From Spirochaetia bacterium (lineage in GTDB: Bacteria > Spirochaetota > Spirochaetia > SZUA-6 > Bin103): DNA of 64,000 nucleotides. Both the position numbers and the translations under genes were made by a program. Shown here in pieces: positions 17,375-39,733 of this stretch. The stretch lies in NCBI GenBank assembly GCA_965198005.1, contig CBDAOI010000004.1:1632001-1696000 (forward strand), read 5' to 3'. Every line of letters begins with the position of its first letter. The stretch's first letter is position 1. A model generated the notes under the pieces. That model saw only the letters and a program-made list of their open reading frames with translations. It was not told the DNA's origin and made no database searches.

Positions 17375-19156
17375 TCAGAATCCCATTTCTTTCTTCAGGG
17401 CACTATCAATCCAGAGACGGGAGAAGATCACTTCCTCGCCCCCGCTTGATATCAGTTCACCGTTATAGCCTATGAGCCACGGCTGGTTCACCGAAAACTG
17501 TGGAAGCAAAGGACCATATATCGTCCAGTATTGCTCTAATGCGTACATGACCAAGTCTGGCACCAGCCTGTTCCGCTCCTCGACGGTGGTCGCGGCTGCG
17601 GCTGCGGCATGCATGGCGTCATAAGTCGGGTCGTTGACGCTGCTATTTACACCATCCGTGGTAAACCCACTCATGATTGACACTGCCCACTGCATGGAAA
17701 CAGCATACGCCGTATCGTTACTGGCCATTTCGTATTCCTGAGCTTTTCTTCTGGGGCCCCATGCAGCGTTTGGCGTTACTTCAACCTCCACATCAACGCC
17801 AATCTTCTTCCAGTATGAAGCGGCTAATTCCGCATAGTTTAGATCGAAACGCTCAAGGTGCATCAACACGGTCTTGAATCTAGTGCCGTCCGCGCCGCGA
17901 GGATACCCGGCAGCATCAAGCAACGCTTCGGCCCCTTCCGGGTTATACGTGCGGCCCTTCTGGAGCTCCTCGGGCCACTCTTCAAATGGGGTGGAACCGT
18001 CTGTCATGAAACGGCCCAGCCGCCCTTGAGGCATCGGATCTGAGAAACCCTTGAAGTACGAATTGTCAATGGTTTCGAAGTCCAGTGCCATGTTCATTGC
18101 CTTGCGCACCCTGATGTCGTCAAAGGGTTCTATCTGAGTGTTCATTGCAAAACCATTGTCCGATCGAAACCGTACCGGCCACAATTCGACGTCGGGGTTG
18201 GTCCGCTGGATGCTCTCTACCTGCTCGATAGTCCGGAGTTGAGCTACCCCGGCCACACCCACGTAATCCACCTTACCCGTGCGCATTGCCGCCAGTTGTG
18301 TTGCCACTTCGGGCATAATCAGAGCCCTTAACGTGTCAACATATGGCAAACGGTTTTCCGGGTATTTTTCGTCGTAGCCCCAGTAGCCAGGATTCTTGGT
18401 ATAGGTGATGGAGCTGCCCTCGGTCCAGTCAGTCAGCTCAAAAGGACCGGTGCCGACCAGGTTGCTCCAAGCCGTTACGTCCCCGTGTTCCTTGATCACC
18501 TCGGGGGGGTACATGACAGCAAGGGAGTCGTCGAGGATAACCATCAGCGTAAGGAGATTTGGCTCCTTCAGCTTGAAAACCACCGTCCATTTGTCGGTGG
18601 CCGTTATGGATTCGAATGACACCCCAGTCAAAACACTATAAGCAGCGCTAGGTTCGGTGAAGCCGCTGCCCAGACCCAGAGTACGGTGAAAGTTATATAC
18701 GACATCGTCGGCAGTCAGCTCCCGACCGTTCATTGGTGCCTTATCGTGCCAGTGAACGCCCTGGCGGACTTTGACGACAACTGTTTTGTCGTCGGGCATT
18801 TCCCAGCTCTCCGCCAGAGCCCCCCTCGTGTACTTTGGAGCGGCCATGGTCGGGAAGTTATATTCGTCCCTGGGCGTTGCCCAGTCGCCGATGCCTAGCT
18901 TCTCTACGACCAGGCCCACGGCCACGACACCCCCACTCAAATGTTTGTCAGTATGCGAGGGCGATTCTTTCTTGACGTAGGTTATTGTCCCGCCATACTC
19001 CGGCGCGGTCACCATCTTGCCGGTGGTCGGGTCGGTCACCATTTCCTTCTCCATCGCCGCGGCCGGCTCCTCCTCCGAGGCAGCCGCCCAGAGGCCGGTG
19101 GCGGTCAGTGCGAGGCCACACAGCACGGCGAGCGAAATGCGCATTACGAAATGCAT
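17375..19156 (-). CDS. ABC transporter substrate-binding protein, family 5
   Basis: Signal peptide, PEYGG, LAESWE, VGTGPF, PFDDIRVRKA. Confidence 0.93.
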   Translation of the reverse strand: MHFVMRISLAVLCGLALTATGLWAAASEEEPAAAMEKEMVTDPTTGKMVTAPEYGGTITYVKKESPSHTDKHLSGGVVAVGLVVEKLGIGDWATPRDEYNFPTMAAPKYTRGALAESWEMPDDKTVVVKVRQGVHWHDKAPMNGRELTADDVVYNFHRTLGLGSGFTEPSAAYSVLTGVSFESITATDKWTVVFKLKEPNLLTLMVILDDSLAVMYPPEVIKEHGDVTAWSNLVGTGPFELTDWTEGSSITYTKNPGYWGYDEKYPENRLPYVDTLRALIMPEVATQLAAMRTGKVDYVGVAGVAQLRTIEQVESIQRTNPDVELWPVRFRSDNGFAMNTQIEPFDDIRVRKAMNMALDFETIDNSYFKGFSDPMPQGRLGRFMTDGSTPFEEWPEELQKGRTYNPEGAEALLDAAGYPRGADGTRFKTVLMHLERFDLNYAELAASYWKKIGVDVEVEVTPNAAWGPRRKAQEYEMASNDTAYAVSMQWAVSIMSGFTTDGVNSSVNDPTYDAMHAAAAAATTVEERNRLVPDLVMYALEQYWTIYGPLLPQFSVNQPWLIGYNGELISSGGEEVIFSRLWIDSALKKEMGF

Positions 19157-19172
19157 CAGATAACTCCTGTTG

Positions 19173-19260
19173 CTCGAGAGTACTGAATCGACTGCCGGCC
19201 CCTCGCCTACTCTCGAGTTATGCCTGCTTCAACGCCGGCGAGCACAAGCGAGGGCGACAG
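19173..19260 (-). promoter_or_regulatory. Conserved two-helix RNA element upstream of the SBP Shine-Dalgarno (copy 1)
   Basis: Helix B CTCGAGAGTA/TACTCTCGAG; helix A CTGTCG-CCCTCGCTT pairs with AGGCGAGGG-CGGCAG; homologs at 35851 and 47623. Confidence 0.7.
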
Positions 19261-19313
19261 CGCGGGTCCCCAGGCGGTACGGCGCTTGGAGACGAGCCCG
19301 GGTTTAGTCGTGG

Positions 19314-19340
19314 TTAGTCGTAACCGGTCTTGGGTGCCAT
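19314..19340 (-). CDS. Putative leader peptide MAPKTGYD
   Basis: AAGGAGG SD upstream; homologous to MTPKTGYD at 35780 with synonymous codon changes. Confidence 0.6.
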   Translation of the reverse strand: MAPKTGYD

Positions 19341-19739
19341 CCCATCCTCCTTTGACGTGCGCGCACCACCGGCCGTTCGGATCGCGTCGGGACCTGCGTC
19401 CCAGCGTCCACGCGGCTGGCGAGGCGAGTTGGATTGGATTGGCCGGCGACGCCGGCGGTAGAGTTGATAAGTGGGTTGATGAGGCCCGGTACGCCGGTCT
19501 CGGCGCTGAACGGACACCGCGTGAGGCGCCGGATGGGTTAGCTGTGTTGGGGGGGGGGGACTCCTCACCATTAAGCAAGCGCGCCGCGAGCTGATTTTCA
19601 GCAAATCTCGGCGCGCGGCTGTCAGGGGAACAGAGTGTCATAAGCGTTGACGTGTTATAAGTCACTCAAGCCCTCCGCAGGTGAGGCACAGCCATACCCA
19701 GATGTAGTCGCGATGTCGCGATTGACTGGATCCCACCCT

Positions 19740-19768
19740 ATCGTAACCTCCGCTCCCGTGGACGTCAA
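19740..19768 (-). promoter_or_regulatory. Sigma70-type promoter TTGACG-N17-TACGAT for the SBP leader
   Basis: Same position as TTGACT-N17-TATTAT at 35277 within the homologous block. Confidence 0.7.
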
Positions 19769-20224
19769 CCACGAATCGGCCCAGCAATTCTCGGTGAACG
19801 GCAGTCGATGGCCTGAAGAGACAGTCTGGAGGGGCCCCCACCATTCGCCAACCCCCGCCGCGAAAGGATTCCGGGGGGGAGGGGATGGGCAAGGGTAGGA
19901 CGCGCCGGTTGCGTTGCCCCTAACCGGTGGCAGCGCTGAGTAGTGTTTTCAGCCATCTTTTGCATCCGTTCAAACCTGAGACTTTCAGTATGCCACCCCT
20001 GCGGCACAAATCAACAGGAAAAACTGGCGAATTGAAGGTTTCTTGAGATTTCTTTCGGGCAGCCGCGGCAGCCGAGAGCCCCTCGCGGCGCCGACTCGGG
20101 CGCATCGCCCCTCCAGAGCCGTCATTCGCCGGCGATGTGGCCGTCCGCAGGCCGTTCACCGTCCACGTCGGCCTCACAGCGGCCCGCTGAGGGCATTCCA
20201 GCCCCTCGGGGGTAGCCTGGGTAC

Positions 20225-22140
20225 GAGCGCCAGGCTAACTGGCATATGACAGAGGGTGAAAGTCCCTCGGAACGAAGGAGCAGCCAATCCACGTTTCTCC
20301 GCGAGCCGTGCGTTGGCACCTGCGAGGGTGCAGGCGAAGCGTCGGCAGCGGTGCGTGCGGGCAGAGTTATGGAGCGCCGCAAAATACGACATCTGGAGTG
20401 CCGAGACTCTGTACTCGGTCGAAGGCAACACCGGTCGAGCCAGTATGGTGAGGATCGACCGGGCTCCACGGCGTCGAAGAACTCAGGCACGTGCGTACGT
20501 CATATACCGGGACCTGGGAGGTCTTCGGGTCGTCCCGGCGAGTCGTCGCCGGGACCGCGGAGGGAAGGCGTGAGGCTGGACCAAAGATGAACGACCCGAA
20601 GGAGTCGGACATGGGCATAGTAGCGGCGAAGCCGGCGAACAAGGGAGCGCAAGCGACTGCGGAGACGGTGGAGCGAAGGCCCATGACCAACGGGAATTCG
20701 CAAGGTCAAAGCACGGGCCGGACGCAGAGTCGGGCAACCGTGACACAGGCGGCCGAGCGGATACGGCAATTCGTAAAGAGAGAACCGCAGGAGAAACTCA
20801 CTGCGCTGCTGCACCACGTGACGCCGGAAGCGCTGCGGGTGGCCTATTACGCGCTGAAGCGTGAAGCGGCCCCGGGGGTGGACGGGATGACGTGGCGGGA
20901 GTACGAGACGGGGTTGGAAGTGCGCTTGCACGACCTGCACCGGCGAGTACACACAGGAGCGTACCGAGCGACCCCGGTACGGCGGGTCAACATCGACAAG
21001 CCGGACGGAGGCACACGACCGCTGGGGGTGGCCGCGCTGGAGGACAAGATCGTCCAGAAGGCCGTGGTGGATGTGATCCTGACACCGATCTATGAGGAGG
21101 AATTTCTCGGGATCAGCTATGGGTTTCGACCGGGGCGCGGGGCACACGATGCGTTGGACGCACTGGCCTACGCCATCGAACGGCGCGAAGTGAACTGGAT
21201 ATTGGACGCGGACATTCGCGCCTACTTCGACACGATCTCGCGGGACTGGTTGATCAGATTCCTGGAGCATCGGATTGGAGATCGGCGGGTGCTGCGGCTG
21301 ATAAAGAAGTGGCTGCGCGCTGGGGTACTGGAAGAAGGCCGACAGATCGACGCGGGGCGGGGTACAGCGCAAGGGTCGGTGATTTCACCGATGCTCGCGA
21401 ATATATACTTGCACTACGTGTTGGACCTGTGGGTCACCAAGAAGTGGCGGCCGCAGGAGGCGCGCGGAGACATGATCATAGTGCGCTACGCAGATGACTA
21501 TGTCGCCGGGTTCGAGCATCGTGACGATGCGGAACGCTTCCTGCGGGAACTGAAGGAGCGATTCAGAGGCTTCGAGCTGGAACTGAACGCCGACAAGACC
21601 CGACTCCTCGAGTTTGGACGGTATGCCGAAAGGAACCGCCGAGCACGTGGGGAAGGGCGACCGGAGACGTTCGACTTTCTGGGTTTCACGCATTATTGCA
21701 GGAAGGACAGGAAAGGACGCTTCGGGCTGGGGCGGAAGCCAATTCGGAAGCGGATGAATCGTACGCTGAAGAGGATCAAGATCGAGCTCCGCAGACGAAT
21801 GCATGATGACGTGATGGAAACCGGGCGCTGGCTGGGACGGGTACTGCGCGGATGGCTCAACTACTACGCGGTACCCACCAGCTACCGCTATCTGCACCGA
21901 TTCGTGTGGCGTCTGCGAGGAATCTGGGTAAAGATTCTACGCCGGAGGTCCCAGAAGGACCGATTCTCCTGGGCTTGGATGCTGGCGATCAGCATCAAGC
22001 TGTGGCCCCAACCCCGAATCGTACACTCATGGCCGGACCGGCGATTTGCCGTCAACCACCGAAGGTAGGAGCCGGATGGTTTAACGACCACGTCCGGATC
22101 TGTGCGGGGGGCGCCGGGTAACCGGCGTTCCTACCGCGCC
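20225..22140 (+). mobile_element. Group II intron, full length, probably bacterial class E-like
   Basis: RT ORF; D5 GAGCCGGATG..CGTCCGGATC at about 22069; D6 ending CCTACCGCGCC; EBS1 GTACTC (20411-16) pairs with IBS1 GGGTAC (20219-24); boundaries agree with the empty-site homolog at 22560. Confidence 0.9.
20587..22068 (+). CDS. ltrA: Group II intron reverse transcriptase/maturase, no endonuclease domain
   Basis: AAPGVDG, RPLGVAALEDKIVQ, GTAQG..ISPMLANIYLH, VRYADD, FDFLGF, maturase GWLNYY. Confidence 0.93.
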   Translation: MNDPKESDMGIVAAKPANKGAQATAETVERRPMTNGNSQGQSTGRTQSRATVTQAAERIRQFVKREPQEKLTALLHHVTPEALRVAYYALKREAAPGVDGMTWREYETGLEVRLHDLHRRVHTGAYRATPVRRVNIDKPDGGTRPLGVAALEDKIVQKAVVDVILTPIYEEEFLGISYGFRPGRGAHDALDALAYAIERREVNWILDADIRAYFDTISRDWLIRFLEHRIGDRRVLRLIKKWLRAGVLEEGRQIDAGRGTAQGSVISPMLANIYLHYVLDLWVTKKWRPQEARGDMIIVRYADDYVAGFEHRDDAERFLRELKERFRGFELELNADKTRLLEFGRYAERNRRARGEGRPETFDFLGFTHYCRKDRKGRFGLGRKPIRKRMNRTLKRIKIELRRRMHDDVMETGRWLGRVLRGWLNYYAVPTSYRYLHRFVWRLRGIWVKILRRRSQKDRFSWAWMLAISIKLWPQPRIVHSWPDRRFAVNHRR

Positions 22141-22405
22141 CCCCTGCAACACCCGTCAACGCCGATTCCCGGCACCGCTGGCTCCGTATTGACCGCGCCG
22201 CCACCGCCCGCAGCCCAGCCTGGTCGGGTCGCAGCCACCTCCAGGACCAGCTACTAGCGACGGCAGACCTCCTCGAGCGTCAAGCCGCCGCTCCGTCAGT
22301 CGCCGCGCGCGCGGGGAATTGGGCCGTTGCTGCGGCCGTCGCGGCGCTCCGGAGGTGCAACCGCGAGCCGCTCGTCGGTTGAGTTCGAGGCTGCTCGGAC
22401 AGGAG

Positions 22406-22648
22406 CGGCAGCACGAGCGCCGCCGCGGCGACGATCTCGGCACTCGGACCCGTTCAGGGCCGGCATTCACGGCCGATTGGCCGGCAGCGGGCCGCTCGGC
22501 GTCCGAGTCGGCCTCATAGCGGCCCCCTGACGGCCTTCCAAACCCAGGGAGATACCCCAGGGTACCCCCAGAATCCCGCAAAGTGCCCGTCAAAGCCGTT
22601 TCCCACCACCGCTGACACCGCTGACACGCCGCGCGGTCCGCCACCCCG
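22406..22648 (+). repeat. Diverged, intron-free second copy of the intron target region (20066-20224 + 22141-22205)
   Basis: Shared blocks GTCGGCCTCAYAGCGGCCC, GGGTAC^CCCC, CCCGTCAAMGCCGWTTCCC, CACCGCTG. Confidence 0.75.
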
Positions 22649-22745
22649 GCTCCCGTGTGCCACCTCGAACATCAATCCGAGACCGGCACTGATCAGCGCT
22701 TGCAGGTCAGGAACGACGTGAGGTGCGGGCTGCAGAGCCCCCCCC

Positions 22746-23014
22746 AGTCGCGCCCAAACCCGCGCGGCGGCTCGACGCTCTCCAGTTCGGCAAGATCAAG
22801 CCCGCACATCGCCTCCAGCCGCTGTGCGAGCGCGGACTCCTGGAGACTGTCGGGCAAGTGGTCGAGCCACGCTTGATACTCACCCTGGAGGTCGAGCAGG
22901 GTGCCTACCGCATCCTGCCAGCGCTGCGGTCGGGACCTGCGGTCTTGCGGCCTGCGGTACTGCACCCGGGGCTGCGCTGCCTTGCGGCGCTCTCGATAGC
23001 GCCGTTGTCGTTCC
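22746..23014 (-). pseudogene. Truncated small conserved hypothetical protein of mobile elements (RSRPQRW...PPRGFGRD)
   Basis: Recognisable ERQRRYR..RRSRPQRWQDAV..YQAWLDHLP..PPRGFGRD sequence, fused to an IS110 tail. Confidence 0.55.
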
Positions 23015-23232
23015 GTGCGGTCACGCAGCATCGCGCACGCCACCGCGAGCAACCGGTCCGCGACCGTACGCAGCGCCCGGCCATGGCGCTGCCCGCGCGC
23101 GCGTAGCGCCGCATACCGCTCCCGACTCACCGGATCGTGCTGGATCGCCACCCGCGCCCAGTGATACATCGCGTTGCTCAGCCGCTGGTTGCAGGCACGG
23201 CGCATGCTCACCTGGCAACTCTTCCCCTGCGA
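23015..23232 (-). mobile_element. IS110-family transposase C-terminal remnant
   Basis: GKS..MRRACNQRLSNAMYHWARVA..YAALRARG..ALRTVADRLLAVACAMLRDRT. Confidence 0.7.
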
Positions 23233-23446
23233 TTGATCAGCCCGTTGCGTTCCTCCTGCAACTCGGCAGTCCGGCGCGACCATTCCCGCAACTCGATCAC
23301 CGGCGGTGCCTGCACCTGCAACTGACGAAAGCTGCTGATAAGAAATCAGCCAGCCCGGCAGGTATCTTTGGCTCACTTACTCGTGATGGCAGGCCCAGCT
23401 TGCGGGTCAGGGGAGTACCGGAGTAGCCATGAGCCGCAGTATATCA

Positions 23447-24548: not shown

Positions 24549-24640
24549 TCAGGGACACCACCGGGATGAGGGCATTCTTGACGGCGTGCCGGATCACCAC
24601 GGCCCGCTCCTTCAGCCCCTTGGACCAGGCGGTGCGGATA
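24549..24640 (-). pseudogene. ABC permease internal fragment
   Basis: IRTAWSKGLKERAVVIRHAVKNALIPVVSL, near-identical to 16472-16563. Confidence 0.85.
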
Positions 24641-33806: not shown

Positions 33807-34490
<684 letters not shown>

Positions 34491-34493
<3 letters not shown>

Positions 34494-34850
34494 CTCGGAC
34501 TCTACGAGTCGTGGGGCTTTCGGGAGGTGTGGGTGGAGGTGCCGGACGAGCCTGCGCCGAGCCGGCCGGCTGTGCTTGGTCCCGGTCTGACGATCTACGT
34601 GTCGGGGCGGGCGGGGCTGCGTCCGGCGCCGGCGAGCTGAATCGGGTGGGGCGTTTGCTGGGTGCTGCGGAGGGCACGGGGCCGGATAGCGATCCGTTCT
34701 TGCGGAGCCAGCGCCGCGAGAGCCACGCCGCGGGATGGGTAGGGGGGCATGCCGAAGGCCGGGCGGAGGCCCAGCGTGCGAGTGCGCTACAGGTGCTCGA
34801 GACCCGTGGCGTTGCCGTATCGGCTTCCCTGGCGGCGCGGTTGGCAGAGA
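34491..34850 (+). pseudogene. Second Uma2-like remnant
   Basis: KLGLYESWGFREVWVEVPD and RVGRLLG..GTGPDSDPFLR in broken frames. Confidence 0.55.
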
Positions 34851-34946
34851 TGGACACGCACCACACCTCTCACCTTGACCCTGCGTCGGAATGCGCCGGA
34901 AAAGGTGCTTGACGCCTTGCTGTCTCCCGAGACGGCGAGCCCGCCC

Positions 34947-35113
34947 TCAGCCGTCCGCCACGTCGAACGCCGTCACGTTGCGCGTCTCGCGGCTGAACAC
35001 TGGTACGGAATGCTCGCGAAGAAGGCGTGAAACAGCTCCTTCAGGCCCGCGCAGTCGTGCGCCTCCAGCTTGCGGAAGGTCTGCATGCCGATGGGCAGTC
35101 TGCGACGGGCCAC
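34947..35113 (-). pseudogene. Third AAA-ATPase copy, collapsed to 167 nt
   Basis: Start, a middle patch and the stop region of copies 1/2 are joined; upstream -10 and downstream flank retained. Confidence 0.9.
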
Positions 35114-35276
35114 ACCTCATCTTACCCCGTCGCCGGTCGAGTGGCCGCCGCCGGCGCAGCCTGATCGCGGGTGCTACGCCGGGCGTAAGCTTGTCGACGG
35201 GGTGTCGGAGTGTCGGGGTGCTGATCGATCTGCCGGGTGACTTCAAGAAACTTCGGCAGTTGGGCCGTTTCGTGGT

Positions 35277-35305
35277 TTGACTCCCACGGGAGCCGAGGTT
35301 ATTAT
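35277..35305 (+). promoter_or_regulatory. Sigma70 promoter TTGACT-N17-TATTAT for the SBP leader
   Basis: Consensus spacing; homologous to 19740-19768. Confidence 0.72.
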
Positions 35306-35311
35306 ATGGTG

Positions 35312-35495
35312 GGATGCAGTCAATCGTGACTACATCTGGGTATAGCTGTGCCTCACCTGCGGAGGGCTTGAGTGACTTATAACACGTCAACGCTTATGAC
35401 ACTCTGTTCCCCTGACAGCCGCTCGCCGAGAATTGCTGAAAATCAGCTCGCGGCGGGCTTGCTTAATGGTGAGGAGTCCCCCCCCACACACACAC
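35312..35495 (+). ncRNA. Candidate structured 5' leader domain (homolog at about 19545-19733, minus strand)
   Basis: CCTCACC(35351)/GGTGAGG(35468) closing helix, GAGTG/CACTC arm, GCTCGCCG/CGGCGGGC arm with GCTGA-AAA-TCAGC tip. Confidence 0.5.
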
Positions 35496-35779
35496 TTTTC
35501 GTACAACAGAGCAACCGAGAACAACTAACCGCTCCGGCTGATCGCTCCGTGCGCGTCCCCGCGCACGCCGTCGCCTTCACCACGACGCCTGCGCCCACGG
35601 CGGCAGCCAGCCGTGGCGCCGGCTCGTGCGATCGCCGACCGAGCCAGCGCAGCGACGTCGTCACCTTCACAGCCCGCCACCGCCCGGCGCCGGCCTTGCC
35701 GACCACTCGGACTCGCTGCCTCGCCGACCGACACAGGCGTGGGGTGCCACGCCTGTCCACGCATACAAGGAGGCACGGG

Positions 35780-35806
35780 ATGACACCCAAGACGGGATAC
35801 GACTAA
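35780..35806 (+). CDS. Putative leader peptide MTPKTGYD
   Basis: AAGGAGG SD; conserved with 19314-19340. Confidence 0.6.
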   Translation: MTPKTGYD

Positions 35807-35850
35807 CGCCCCAAGACCGCCGCGCGGGGCGGACACGGAACGACCGAGGG

Positions 35851-35905
35851 TGTCGCCCTTGCTTTCGAGAGTAGGCGAGGGGTCGGCAGTGGAATCGGTA
35901 CTCTC
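35851..35905 (+). promoter_or_regulatory. Conserved two-helix RNA element (copy 2)
   Basis: GAGAGTA/TACTCTC; TGTCG-CCCTTGCTT pairs with AGGCGAGGG-CGGCA. Confidence 0.7.
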
Positions 35906-35932
35906 AGAATCAACAATTCGAGGAGATTCTCA

Positions 35933-37717
35933 ATGAGTAATCTGTTCAAAACATGCGTCGCCGTAGTGTTCGGTCTCGTGCTGATCGCCATCGGCGTCGG
36001 GGCAAGCCCGGCCGGGGAAGAGGAGCCGGCCGCGGCGATGGAGAAGGAGATGGTGCTCGACCCCACCACCGGCAAGATGGTGTCGGCGCCGGAGTATGGC
36101 GGCACATTCACCTGGGGCGATGCCACCGGGGCTCCGCACTGTGACCCTCACATCCATGGCTGGGGGCCACGGGCCATCGACGGCGTTGCAGAGAGGCTAG
36201 GCATCAGGGACTGGGCAGCAGATAGGAACGAAATCAGCTTTTCAGACTCTTATACTCCTCTCCGTTTCGTGAGAGGGGCGCTGGCGGAAAGCTGGGAGAT
36301 GATCGACTCACTGACGTATGTCTACCACATCCGCAAGGGCGTTCGCTGGCACGACAAAGCGCCGATGAATGGTCGGGAGTTCACTGCCCAGGATGTCGTA
36401 TACAACTTTCACCGTTATACGGGTTCGGGCAGCGGCTTCACCGAACCTAGCGCCGCTGCTGGCACACTCGCTTCGATACCACTCGAATCGATAACCGCCA
36501 GCGACGATTCGACGGTTGTCTTCAAGCTGACGCAGCCAAAGGTAGACTTGCTGGATGTCCTTGCCATCGACTGGAGTGCCGCTATGTTACCCCCAGAGGT
36601 AATCGAGCAATACGGCGACCTGACGGACTGCGACAACATGGTCGGTACCGGGCCCTATATGCTGACAGAATGGGTCGATAACACGTCTATGACGTATTCC
36701 AAGAATCCTGACTACTGGGGCTTTGACGAAAAATATCCGGAGAACCGCTTGCCCTACATCGACCAGATAAACCGGCTAATCATGCCGGAAAAGGAAACAC
36801 AGCTGGCGGCGCTACGCTCGGGTAGGCTCGATTACATCGGTCAGTCCGGCGGGGGTCAGTTACAAGTGGCCCAGGTGGAGAACCTACAGCGGACCAACCC
36901 CGAAATCGTTTTATACCCGTGGGCCTTTCGGTCGGAGACCTCTGTTGCATTCAACCTGCGCCACCCGTCGCCCTTTCAAGACATCAGGGTTCGCAAGGCG
37001 ATGCAGATGGCCATTGATCTGGAGACCATCAACAATACTTACTTTCGTGGCTTTGCAATGACGAAACCCCAAGGAATCATAGGAGACGGTCTGAAGGGGT
37101 ACTACATCCCATTCGAAGAGTGGCCCGAAGAGACCAGGAAAGTCTTTGCGTATGACCCGGAAGGGGCCGAAGCGTTGCTTGATGAGGCTGGGTATCCGCG
37201 CGGTGCGGATGGCATTCGATTCAAGACCGTCCTGAACCCCGTGCCCTCGTGGGATGTGGGTTATCAAGAAATAGCCGCTGAATACTGGGCTGCGATTGGC
37301 GTTGACGTAGAGGTTAAGATAACTGAAGTCGCTCAACTGATGGCGCTGGTAACTGAAGGTACTTATGAAGGGATGGCCTATATGGATATCGGCAATGACG
37401 GCTCGATTCAATGGCTGATGAGTGTTCTTCAAATCGGAGCGCAATGGGGCCGCACAGGACATCAGGACCCGGTGATGGACGCCAAGGCAAAAGCCGCTAT
37501 GGCCGCTACCAGGCTCGAGGAGCAGCAGCGGCTGGTGGCGGAGGCAGATATGTACTCGATCCAGCAGCATTGGTTCATATGGGGTCCTAAAGTTCCCCAA
37601 TTTGAGGCGGTGCAGCCGTGGGTGATAGGTTTTAACGGTGAAATCTGGTATACTACACATGCGCCTTTCGAGCGCCTGTGGATCGATAGTGCGCTGAAGA
37701 GCGAAATGGGTTTCTGA
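35933..37717 (+). CDS. ABC transporter substrate-binding protein, family 5
   Basis: Signal peptide, EEEPAAAMEKEMV, PEYGG, LAESWE, VGTGPY. Confidence 0.93.
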   Translation: MSNLFKTCVAVVFGLVLIAIGVGASPAGEEEPAAAMEKEMVLDPTTGKMVSAPEYGGTFTWGDATGAPHCDPHIHGWGPRAIDGVAERLGIRDWAADRNEISFSDSYTPLRFVRGALAESWEMIDSLTYVYHIRKGVRWHDKAPMNGREFTAQDVVYNFHRYTGSGSGFTEPSAAAGTLASIPLESITASDDSTVVFKLTQPKVDLLDVLAIDWSAAMLPPEVIEQYGDLTDCDNMVGTGPYMLTEWVDNTSMTYSKNPDYWGFDEKYPENRLPYIDQINRLIMPEKETQLAALRSGRLDYIGQSGGGQLQVAQVENLQRTNPEIVLYPWAFRSETSVAFNLRHPSPFQDIRVRKAMQMAIDLETINNTYFRGFAMTKPQGIIGDGLKGYYIPFEEWPEETRKVFAYDPEGAEALLDEAGYPRGADGIRFKTVLNPVPSWDVGYQEIAAEYWAAIGVDVEVKITEVAQLMALVTEGTYEGMAYMDIGNDGSIQWLMSVLQIGAQWGRTGHQDPVMDAKAKAAMAATRLEEQQRLVAEADMYSIQQHWFIWGPKVPQFEAVQPWVIGFNGEIWYTTHAPFERLWIDSALKSEMGF

Positions 37718-37914
37718 GCATGTCGCCGTAGGCGACTTGCAGTGGACCCGCCTTCAGGCGGGGCACGAGCGGCTCCGCCGTTGGCTGAATCAATCGCCCG
37801 TTGGGCGATTGAAACGGGAGTCGCTGCGCGACTCCACGAGCACCGCGGGCGCCGGGAGGACGCTTCCGAGTGCGCTTCAGAGCGCGCTTCCCGGCGCTCA
37901 TTTACCACGAAGAT

Positions 37915-38868
37915 ATGAGAGCCTATGTCATCAGGCGCGTATTGCTGGTCATCCCCACTCTGTTCATATTGACCATAGTCGTCTTTCTCTCGGTCCACTT
38001 CCTCCCGGGCGATGTCATAGACGCCATGGTGGGTGACATGCAATACCAAATGGGCTTCGACCGTGCAGCTCTCGAGCGTATGCTGGGATTGGATGTGCCT
38101 GTCCCCGTGCAGTATGGACGCTGGATAGGAGGTATCTTCCTGCACGGCACACTTGGCGAATCGCTGTGGGGCGATAGCCCGGTAGAGGAGTTGCTACGAG
38201 ACGGGCTGCCGGTAACGCTGGGGCTTGGCTTCCTGGCTATCGTCATCGGGCTGGTGATCGCGCTGCCGGTCGGCATCTTCTCGGCGATCCGTCAGGGTAC
38301 CTTTACCGACTACGCGGGGCGCTCGGTCGCCATCATCGGCCTGGCAACGCCCAACTTCTGGATAGCAGTCATGGTCTTGCTGTATCCGGCCATCTGGTGG
38401 GGCTGGACGCCGCCCTTGCAGTGGGTTCCCTTCACCGAAGACCCGCTGGGGAATCTCGGGGTGCTGATCATTCCCAGTCTGATTCTGGGGACCTACCTGT
38501 CGGCCAGCACCATGCGGATGATCCGCACCACGATGCTGGAGGTGCTCCGGCAGGATTATGTGCGGACGGCCTGGTCGAAGGGGTTGCGGGAGCGGGCCGT
38601 GGTGATGCGACATGTCGTCAAGAATGCCCTCATCCCGGTGGTTTCGCTGGTCGGCCTGCAGTTGCCGATCCTGGTCGGCGGGTCGGTGATCATCGAGAAC
38701 ATATTCAACCTGCCGGGCGTAGGTCGGCTCATGGTAGATGCGCTGGGACGCAGAGACTACCCGGTGGTCTCCGGTGTGAACCTGATGTTCGCCACTGGGG
38801 TCATGGCGATCAATCTGGTTACCGACCTGATGTATCCCTATCTGGACCCCCGACTCCGTTATGAATGA
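37915..38868 (+). CDS. ABC permease (DppB-like)
   Basis: MRAYVIRR, DYVRTAWSKGL. Confidence 0.93.
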   Translation: MRAYVIRRVLLVIPTLFILTIVVFLSVHFLPGDVIDAMVGDMQYQMGFDRAALERMLGLDVPVPVQYGRWIGGIFLHGTLGESLWGDSPVEELLRDGLPVTLGLGFLAIVIGLVIALPVGIFSAIRQGTFTDYAGRSVAIIGLATPNFWIAVMVLLYPAIWWGWTPPLQWVPFTEDPLGNLGVLIIPSLILGTYLSASTMRMIRTTMLEVLRQDYVRTAWSKGLRERAVVMRHVVKNALIPVVSLVGLQLPILVGGSVIIENIFNLPGVGRLMVDALGRRDYPVVSGVNLMFATGVMAINLVTDLMYPYLDPRLRYE

Positions 38869-39733
38869 TAGGGGGCGCAGTTTCTTTGTCAGGCTGTGGC
38901 GGGAACGGCCGGTGGGTGCTGTCGGCGGCATCATCGTACTGATCTTGATTCTGGTCAGTATCTTGGCCGATTTCCTTGCGCCTTATCGCCCGCGGGAGGT
39001 GAACCTGCCAGACATCTTGCAAGGTCCGTCGGCCACTCATCTCCTGGGTGCCGACCACCTGGGGCGAGACGTCCTGAGCCGCCTCATTCACGGGGCGCGC
39101 ATCTCGATATTCGTCGGGTTTGCCGCGACCACCCTCAACGTTGTCGTGGCCGGGCTGATCGGCGGCACGTCGGGCTTCCTGGGCGGCAAGCTGGACCTGG
39201 TGGTGCAGCGCTTCGTCGATGCCTGGATGTCGTTCCCGGGACTACTGCTGCTGTTGACGGTCATGTCGATAACGGGGCGGGGGATTCTACAGCTCATCGT
39301 GGTGCTGGGCATCGTCGGCGGCATCCCCGCCTCACGCGTGGTGCGAGGGGCTGTGCTCGGGGTCAAGGAGAATACCTACTTTCAAGCCGCGGAGGTGATC
39401 GGCTGCTCGACAGGGAAGACGCTGGTTCGCCACGTGCTGCCCAACATCGCGGCTCCGATAATCGTCATCTTCAGCATCAACATCGGGGCGGTGATCATCA
39501 CCGAGGCGTCTCTGAGCTTCCTCGGTTTCGGTCTGCCGCTCCGGATTCCCAGTTGGGGCGGCATGCTCAGTCGGGAAGGGCGCCAGTACATGGAGATGGC
39601 GCCGCGGCTGGCTCTGTGGCCCGGCCTCTGCCTGACGATCGTCGTCTACAGTCTGAACATGTTCGGCGACGCGGTGCGCGACCTGCTCGACCCGCGGCTG
39701 CGCGGTGGTACCGGTCGTTACGGCGGCAGGTAA
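38861..39733 (+). CDS. ABC permease (DppC-like)
   Basis: LGADHLGRD, HVLPN, EASLSFLGFG, GDAVRDLLDP. Confidence 0.93.
   Translation: MNDRGRSFFVRLWRERPVGAVGGIIVLILILVSILADFLAPYRPREVNLPDILQGPSATHLLGADHLGRDVLSRLIHGARISIFVGFAATTLNVVVAGLIGGTSGFLGGKLDLVVQRFVDAWMSFPGLLLLLTVMSITGRGILQLIVVLGIVGGIPASRVVRGAVLGVKENTYFQAAEVIGCSTGKTLVRHVLPNIAAPIIVIFSINIGAVIITEASLSFLGFGLPLRIPSWGGMLSREGRQYMEMAPRLALWPGLCLTIVVYSLNMFGDAVRDLLDPRLRGGTGRYGGR

Follow-up and report, generated by a model that had tools for sequence, protein, structure and literature searches.

The 64,000-nucleotide stretch of DNA analysed here (the window; positions 1,632,001 to 1,696,000 of contig CBDAOI010000004.1, GenBank assembly GCA_965198005.1) comes from a Spirochaetia bacterium that appears to be an uncultured sponge-associated spirochaete, and it carries two copies, A and B, of a repeat block named F1. 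F1 is probably a lineage-restricted, portable promoter-plus-leader cassette of about 225 nt that has spread by recombination and acts in cis. The cassette would combine a sigma70-type promoter close to the consensus, a 5' hairpin that varies between copies, a very stable RNA domain of some 130 nt with a three-way junction and, at its end, a poly-C run, and it would head the long mosaic 5' leaders in about 25 of some 140 paralogous ATP-binding cassette (ABC) transporter operons with a substrate-binding protein (SBP) of the SBP_bac_5 family. Since F1 would supply the operon promoter, the operon mRNAs are predicted to start approximately 380 to 1200 nt before the SBP start codon. F1 would have moved from leader to leader by recombination or gene conversion, rather than by duplication along with the genes, with the poly-C run as one junction and with displacement of other promoter cassettes. 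The junction domain most likely acts in cis on the transcript that it heads. Because it directly precedes a C-rich, G-poor tract, it might either shield the long untranslated leader from 5'-end-dependent decay or modulate premature Rho-dependent termination at this tract.

The source genome (G000; 4.89 Mb in 4 contigs, 66% G+C) contains 22 full copies of F1, defined as 210 nt or more and sharing 86-100% identity, along with 5 partial copies of 100-192 nt and 13 short fragments. The full and partial copies together show 75-100% identity and have the many dispersed near-identical copies typical of MITEs (miniature transposable elements with inverted repeats). In the window, 35261-35495(+) and 19543-19783(-) align at 89.7% identity over 242 columns with a single 8-nt indel; the homology between these two blocks noted in a preliminary description of the window is therefore real, but it is not peculiar to the two loci. 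The junction domains of copies A and B differ in 3 of 131 columns, and similarity between the copies stops abruptly at the poly-C run (35478-35485 in A, 19559-19549 in B). The proteins encoded by the SBP genes downstream are just 54% identical. A C run of variable length ends every full copy. Terminal inverted repeats of 8 nt or more that would join the ends of 35200-35560, as expected of a MITE, were not found.

F1 is closely associated with SBP genes. A tblastn search with the 594-amino-acid SBP A (PF00496) identified 138 SBP_bac_5 paralogs in the source genome at 35% identity or more over at least 300 amino acids. F1 copies were considered linked to such a gene when located within 1.4 kb upstream and co-oriented, and 23 of the 27 copies of 100 nt or more are linked by this definition, compared with about 0.5 of 27 expected by chance from the share of the genome occupied by such windows. 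Of two further copies, one precedes an internally deleted SBP gene and one a degraded SBP gene, and the last two are truncated fragments. Homology between F1 loci, judged at 85% identity or more, covers the cassette and short extensions and never reaches into coding sequence. The extensions are found upstream in about 12 copies ('group i'), as a different stretch of about 170 nt in about 6 copies, and downstream over 100-200 nt in 7 to 11 copies, and sub-families of F1 carry extensions that are 99-100% identical. Another repeat family, F2 (172 nt), carries promoter-like hexamers of its own, possesses a 47-nt piece in common with F1 and precedes 12 further paralogs.

As far as sequence can show, F1 supplies the promoter of these operons. 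The preliminary description placed a shared sigma70 promoter far upstream of the two SBP genes in the window, and this was borne out: hexamers matching at least 9 of the 12 positions of TTGACA and TATAAT are present in 21 of the 22 full copies, with a spacer of 17 nt in 21 and 18 nt in one. Promoters A and B are the sole sigma70-like matches in 34900-36000 and 19100-20250, respectively, for which shuffled sequences give 0.1-0.2 matches per region of about 1.1 kb. No sense-strand intrinsic terminator was identified before the ATG at either SBP locus of the window. With the transcription start set about 7 nt past the -10 hexamer, the predicted leaders are about 621 nt for SBP A and about 577 nt for SBP B. 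The distance from the end of F1 to the ATG varies from 208 to 1029 nt across loci, and addition of the F1 transcript of about 175 nt gives predicted leaders of about 380-1200 nt. In the 80 nt that follow the junction domain, C (31-47) exceeds G (12-27) in 23 of 23 copies, and a rho gene was found in the source genome (698 bits).

Evidence from RNA consists of assembled contigs from four sponge metatranscriptome runs, which may include DNA, break at repeats and reveal neither transcript ends nor strand. Two contigs of 572 nt (35458-36029) and 514 nt (35520-36029), from two runs of one study, match without mismatches and link the locus-specific leader A to the first 97 nt of the SBP A coding sequence. 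Long leaders of the SBP genes are therefore plausible, and so are the leaders of about 600 nt proposed earlier, although the contigs give no start site. The F1 core is covered by contigs in three of the four runs, from three studies (bins 35340-35487). No contig in any of the four runs covers 35118-35339; this gap does not count as evidence for a start site, as the F1 copies differ there, contigs break at repeats and all runs compared were of RNA.

Phylogenetic analysis with FastTree was performed on 120 full-length paralogs. The 22 F1-linked genes require 21 changes on the tree, compared with a mean of 20.4 and a minimum of 17 in shuffles; F1 therefore does not follow the history of the gene family, and co-inheritance with gene duplication is ruled out by this test. 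F1 is likewise absent from the orthologous position in sister species at all four loci that were checked. The orthologs of SBP A in two sister species (91% and 81% amino acid identity) lack F1 and carry a different TTGACA promoter, a remnant of which is left in the source genome as TCGACG. The orthologs of SBP B in the related genomes G001, G003 and G005 (96, 94 and 92% amino acid identity) have no F1 upstream. The G003 leader is 94% identical from window position 19557 downward, with a different promoter cassette upstream, and the poly-C run is therefore the junction at SBP B. In G001 the SBP B protein is 96% identical and its leader cannot be aligned beyond about 130 nt from the ATG. At the two further loci, orthologous DNA (88% and 82% nucleotide identity) begins 58 nt and about 300 nt past the position of F1, without F1. 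Judged from these comparisons, leaders turn over far faster than genes. Where they can be read, the orthologous 'empty' loci show another promoter cassette in the place of F1 and no clean insertion, which, combined with the lack of terminal inverted repeats, points to spread between leaders by recombination or conversion. Moreover, 5 of 10 pairs of common polymorphic sites in the junction domain display all four allele combinations, and F1 copies therefore recombine. The cassette at the G003 SBP B ortholog is named 'P0'; a blastn search with a P0-like copy of the source genome gave no other copy there. The SBP B leaders of G001 (L106), G003 (L107) and G005 (L108) are either unrelated to window 19157-19560 or only partly alignable with it; that of G001 contains eight copies of the 8-nt repeat CCCTCACG and a different promoter.

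The distribution of F1 is narrow. A covariance model scanned against 24 genomes of the family recovered 23 full domains in the source genome and one in G001. The other 22 genomes gave no full domain, and several of these are single-contig assemblies with 95-98% completeness. The gene that follows the single F1 copy of G001 has as its best counterpart in the source genome a paralog (69% amino acid identity) without F1, and rearranged partial versions of F1 are found in G005 and at a second site in G001. In the search for more distant homologs, blastn in 40 relatives and the 24-genome covariance model gave a full copy only in G001. Pattern scans of 185,579 species genomes and of JGI metagenomes gave matches without wider similarity to F1, or related leader repeats of a G001-like record. 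The scatter of F1 on the tree, the F1-less orthologs and the junction at the poly-C run together lead us to infer that F1 is a recently spread, recombining promoter and leader cassette.

The junction domain stands out within F1. The minimum free energy (MFE) fold of 35312-35492 is a three-way junction of -65 kcal/mol (z = -2.33; 4 of 200 shuffles equally stable), as had been claimed from inspection of the sequence, and the junction is also the MFE fold of 22 of 23 homologs when folded singly. A hairpin at 0-4 nt from the predicted 5' end is found in the folds of all 22 full copies in the source genome and is weak in G001. Conservation along F1 is not uniform, as it would be if recent duplication alone had shaped it. 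Nucleotide diversity (pi) falls from 0.123 in the promoter part to 0.055 in the segment of the 5' hairpin and to 0.019 in the junction domain, which is thus 3 to 6 times less variable than the promoter half. The same order is seen in the identity between the consensus of the source genome and G001, which is 56% in the promoter part, 66% in the 5' hairpin part and 89% in the junction domain. The high identity between copies reflects mainly recent spread and recombination rather than retention over long times. The G001 domain differs from the consensus at 15 of 134 positions and retains the same architecture with a stability of -55.2 kcal/mol, compared with -49.8 kcal/mol for the consensus. Five of the 15 substitutions hit paired positions, which number 86. 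When 2000 mutants with 15 substitutions were generated under each of two null models, 0.9% of the random mutants, and 0.2% of those with the same from-to substitution types, folded as stably as the G001 domain; 0.7% and 0.65%, respectively, scored as well as G001 on the consensus structure. These values suggest that the domain is under selection to keep its fold.

In the alignment of the copies, 95.8% of the cells at paired columns pair, and nearly all pairs are invariant. The arm described earlier as varying in sequence with its pairing kept comes down to one position (columns 176/209), which is U-G in 12 copies, G-C in two that are recent duplicates of each other, U-A in one and broken, hence unpaired, in 8 of 23. 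An Infernal homology search and a covariation check had been proposed; the covariance model found G001 only and there was no covariation signal, and tests of the R-scape type are without power because only G001 has a full copy beyond the source genome. Coding potential was considered as a cause of the conservation and rejected. An open reading frame (ORF) extends from 35372 or 35396 across the poly-C run as far as 35806. On inspection of the sequence it is not preceded by a Shine-Dalgarno motif, and by hand translation most differences between the source genome and G001, as well as three of the four common polymorphisms of the source genome, alter the amino acid. Read from 35372 to 35806(+), this ORF has 144 codons and shares both its frame and its stop codon with the MTPKTGYD mini-ORF; a change in the length of the poly-C run would shift the frame.

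Several explanations other than a portable cassette were weighed. It appears unlikely that F1 proliferated in SBP leaders as a selfish and non-autonomous mobile element, MITE-like or carried along by IS110-type elements, with promoter-like hexamers and a fold that are incidental or serve its own mobility only. The distribution, with many near-identical copies in the source genome against one in G001 and zero in 22 other family genomes, would suit such an element and is of the type read as parasitic for pneumococcal repeats in the available text of PMC3049150. So would the 99-100% identity of the sub-family extensions, the group II introns within the same repeats, and the location of about 7 of 16 matches to Transposase_20 (IS110-type), which share the strand of 'group i' copies and lie 1-10 kb upstream of them. 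However, the inverted termini are missing, the empty sites show replacement of cassettes and no simple insertion with target duplication, and no remnant of IS110 is seen near copy A or the group-ii copies. Target and orientation are strict, with 25 of 27 copies preceding SBP genes, all co-oriented, and the promoter is kept in 21 of 22 copies with no alternative promoter detected at the two window loci. F1 does not have the position of an IS110-family bridge RNA either, which is encoded beside the recombinase gene in the non-coding end of its element: Transposase_20 occurs within 10 kb of about 7 of 27 F1 copies, each time at least 1 kb away, and at neither copy A nor the group-ii copies. Little credence is given to the view that F1 is a multi-copy small RNA (sRNA) gene, whose trans-acting transcript of about 175 nt would be ended by Rho in the C-rich tract, with read-through into the SBP gene being secondary. 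The promoter of its own, the compact stable fold, the C-rich, G-poor tract directly after it in a genome with rho, and the presence of the F1 core in contigs from three of the four runs and three studies would all agree with this view. Against it, the sense strand at the two window loci has no intrinsic terminator that would provide an end of its own, although ends set by Rho may occur; a contig continues from the 3' helix of F1 (35458) through the whole leader into coding sequence; and F1 always sits ahead of an SBP operon in the same orientation, where there is no other promoter-like site. It is similarly improbable that the domain acts as DNA, as a site for a regulator or a hot spot of recombination, with palindromic DNA giving rise to the RNA fold as a side effect. 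Each strand folds as well as the other, F1 copies recombine, and at least five other repeat families terminate in an 18-nt motif (GTTCACCGAGAATTGCTG) that has a relative inside F1 and is located 8-18 nt ahead of a TTGAC box. Yet the G001 domain fits the sense consensus structure (0.65% of the null) and not the antisense one (34%), the domain is located downstream of the promoter and would hence be transcribed, and 130 nt of conservation is long for an operator.

The preliminary description regarded the junction as aptamer-like, forming one regulatory system with a leader peptide and a switch near the ribosome-binding site (RBS). A riboswitch sensor of this kind is highly improbable. Its three-way-junction architecture in the 5' leader of transporter operons and a fold constrained between two species would be in its favour. 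The proposed link to one peptide and switch did not hold, as the region downstream of F1 is heterogeneous: a M-x-PKTGYD mini-ORF is found at 2 loci, M-(I/V/T)-LKEP...RAA at 7, MQILTVYG at 2 and an MQN or MRN peptide at 3, with none detected at 9, and the intervening distance of 208-1029 nt is equally variable. Only 2 of 8 genes with a M-x-PKTGYD leader have F1, and a tie between F1 and one leader peptide was thus rejected. The RBS-proximal hairpin motif is present at 8 of 23 F1-linked, 3 of 12 F2-linked and 32 of 103 other genes. The varied peptides indicate that F1 is an independent module heading varied leaders. With no intrinsic terminator after F1 and varied modules before a distant ATG, no fixed expression platform was recognized. 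A comparison of F1 with Rfam gave no match at the gathering threshold, and at E values up to 10 on both loci the best match was 4.5, to unrelated families; hammerhead-like or other ribozyme readings raised by the junction likewise found no support in the Rfam scans. The breadth expected of an aptamer is also lacking, in that only 2 of 24 family genomes contain the domain in full, the genome and metagenome pattern scans gave no real match, and covariation does not exceed that of shuffles. The domain is missing from the orthologous leaders at 4 of 4 loci, and 113 of 138 paralogs do without it, including 6 of the 8 with the M-x-PKTGYD peptide. Paralogs presumably differ in substrate, yet the domain is nearly invariant. 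F1 is not a ligand-sensing aptamer as far as these comparisons go, which gave no support for one.

Some observations weigh against the reading of F1 as a recombining, cis-acting cassette. Homology to the SBP A orthologs resumes about 180 nt beyond the poly-C run and not at the run itself, and the recombinational mechanism is a deduction from sequence comparison. The covariation score is reached by 79 of 500 shuffles, with one pair changing on both sides, and fold preservation was tested with one pair of species. Folding of the antisense strand is about as stable (-49.0 and -55.6 kcal/mol), its MFE test is also significant at 0.4%, and the test on the consensus structure is the only one that favours the sense strand. 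The low diversity of the domain could come in part from its being a younger module in a mosaic or from more efficient conversion. The RNA evidence that bridges leader and gene consists of contigs from one study, in which DNA contamination is possible and ends and strand are invisible. Finally, a role as stabiliser or against Rho is a conjecture from position and composition.

Features of the window are given in Table 1.

Table 1. Location of F1 and associated features in the window
Feature	Position	Strand	Basis or remark
F1 copy A	35261..35485	+	Query; 21 other full copies in the source genome match at 86-95%
Sigma70-like promoter A, TTGACT-17-TATTAT	35277..35305	+	10/12 hexamer positions; predicted start ~35312
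Predicted 5'-terminal hairpin of transcript A	35312..35337	+	MFE fold; indel-rich segment
Three-way-junction domain A	35345..35478	+	MFE fold; least variable segment
Predicted closing helix; arm 1; arm 2	35351-35357 with 35468-35474; ~35360-35414; ~35417-35464	+	MFE fold
C-rich, G-poor tract, rut-like by composition alone	35476..35555	+	C = 33, G = 15 in 80 nt
Poly-C run, 3' edge of cassette A	35478..35485	+	C run ends all full copies
Locus-specific rest of leader A, with mini-ORF MTPKTGYD at 35780-35806	35486..35932	+	Not repeated at 85% or more in other F1 loci
SBP_bac_5 gene A, 594 aa	35933..37717	+	PF00496, E = 7e-68
Permease genes after SBP A	37870-38868, 38861-39733		Domain search
F1 copy B	19543..19783	-	Homology to copy A
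Sigma70-like promoter B, TTGACG-17-TACGAT	19740..19768	-	9/12 positions; predicted start ~19733
Three-way-junction domain B, ending in poly-C 19549-19559	19559..19692	-	Covariance model R1, 166.4 bits
SBP_bac_5 gene B, 593 aa	17375..19156	-	PF00496, E = 5e-67
'Group i' upstream extension, ~12 F1 copies	19787..20207	-	Resumes at 22147-22551 beyond the group II intron
Group II intron with reverse transcriptase ORF in the group-i extension	20208..22146	+ (opposite F1)	RF02005, 169.5 bits; RVT_1

The two parts of the 'group i' extension, 19787..20207 and 22147-22551, are contiguous in 'group i' copies without the intron. The group II intron is present in about 20 copies in the source genome (98-99.8% identity), several of them at the same point upstream of 'group i' F1. 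IS110-family Transposase_20 matches, comprising fragments and longer ORFs, are found at window 22693-23376(-) and at 15 other sites of the source genome. A truncated SBP_bac_5 fragment (34013-34912(+); ORF of 299 amino acids, partial PF00496) lies just upstream of copy A. A small ORF beginning with MATLSVRALPDPLHRRFKLL is located at L010:1604-1930(-) and in about four further copies upstream of group-ii F1, where it runs into the 5' edge of F1; the copies are 99-100% identical, a deleted remnant is seen at about 35243-35264 of the window, and the ORF has a weak match to FitA-like ribbon-helix-helix antitoxins (E = 5e-4, below the cut-off). At least five repeat families of the source genome, unrelated in other respects, have the 18-nt motif GTTCACCGAGAATTGCTG at their 3' end. 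In the window the motif lies at about 19794-19811(-), and F1 contains a variant of it at 35418-35435(+). The 13-nt core of the motif is present at 103 sites of the source genome with at most one mismatch, usually with a TTGAC box 8-18 nt after it, and what appears to be the left end of an IS110-type element starts right behind the motif in several places; GTTCACCGAGAATTGCTG may serve as a target for insertion or as an upstream promoter element in common use. A 92-nt stretch at window 24549-24640 recurs at more than 150 sites of the source genome (76-98% identity) and is probably a conserved part of paralogous transporter operons rather than a free-standing repeat.

F1 resembles several known systems in part. 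Neisseria carries Correia repeat-enclosed elements (CREE), which use TA as their insertion site and lie beside unrelated genes in both orientations. In the available text of PMC2649163 they are described as short dispersed intergenic repeats, bounded by inverted repeats, that generate promoters at their ends and can give one to an adjacent gene, are co-transcribed as structured RNA, and alter the expression of neighbours by their presence or absence. As far as that text goes, F1 is alike in being a short dispersed intergenic repeat with a promoter and structured co-transcribed RNA. It differs in having no terminal inverted repeats, a single orientation and a position almost only before one paralog family, and it appears to replace promoter cassettes rather than insert. 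BOX repeats of the pneumococcus are built of modules. BOX, RUP and SPRITE are described in the available text of Croucher et al. 2011 (PMC3049150) as interspersed repeats with extensive secondary structure, co-transcribed with genes, dense in one species, sparse in its nearest relative and nearly absent elsewhere, and they are read as parasitic. They are like F1 in being structured, co-transcribed repeats with the same species distribution, and are not described in that text as carrying the promoter of a gene or as tied to one gene family. F1, in contrast, possesses a conserved promoter, and 25 of its 27 copies precede SBP_bac_5 genes. The upstream homology box of Borrelia erp/ospEF-type genes is a promoter-bearing 5' flank common to diverged paralogs and kept alike by recombination; it is found on plasmid prophages and has short leaders. 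To our knowledge, neither a structured RNA domain nor a poly-C hinge has been described for it. In this comparison, conserved promoter-bearing flanks of diverged paralogs are shared with F1, whereas the long leaders, the structured RNA domain and the poly-C hinge set F1 apart.

Three-way junctions are a common architecture of aptamers, and riboswitches and other cis-regulatory leaders in Rfam are, like F1, folded domains in the 5' leaders of transporter operons. F1 is unlike them in lacking a family match, breadth, covariation and a fixed expression platform, and in being exchangeable between unrelated leaders. Leader RNAs that act on termination include the tna leader with its rut site, RARE of mgtCBR, and the put and EAR antiterminator RNAs. 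If the conjecture on Rho holds, F1 would share with these a structured leader element before a C-rich, Rho-loading region in a long leader; no similarity in sequence or in Rfam connects F1 with them, and the likeness serves as a lead on how F1 might work only. Searches of listings and abstracts in an open-access library gave no description of F1 or of promoter-cassette exchange in sponge spirochaetes, which is not proof of absence. F1 is set apart from known repeats by the combination of termini without inverted repeats, strict orientation, restriction to one gene family, and a promoter joined to a constrained fold, and its exchange with other promoter cassettes appears to take place at a homopolymer hinge.

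Where paralogous loci of this genome share very high intergenic identity, this points to a spreading repeat and not to an ancient riboswitch, which calls for caution in annotation. F1 represents a compact natural unit of a promoter plus a stable 5' RNA, whose effects on stability and termination can be tested in reporters. More tentatively, and with considerable doubt, F1 may be considered a portable expression cassette in which a strong promoter and a leader-protecting RNA, recombined at poly-C hinges, reassign which of the approximately 140 SBP operons are strongly expressed; the transporter repertoire of this spirochaete would in that case be tuned by recombination of cassettes, with leaders evolving far faster than the genes they precede. 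If the reading of F1 as a recombining cassette is true, a very large transporter family would be controlled in part by exchangeable promoter and leader modules instead of fixed, vertically inherited regions, and regulatory turnover would be directly measurable, with orthologs 92-96% identical and their leaders unrelated.

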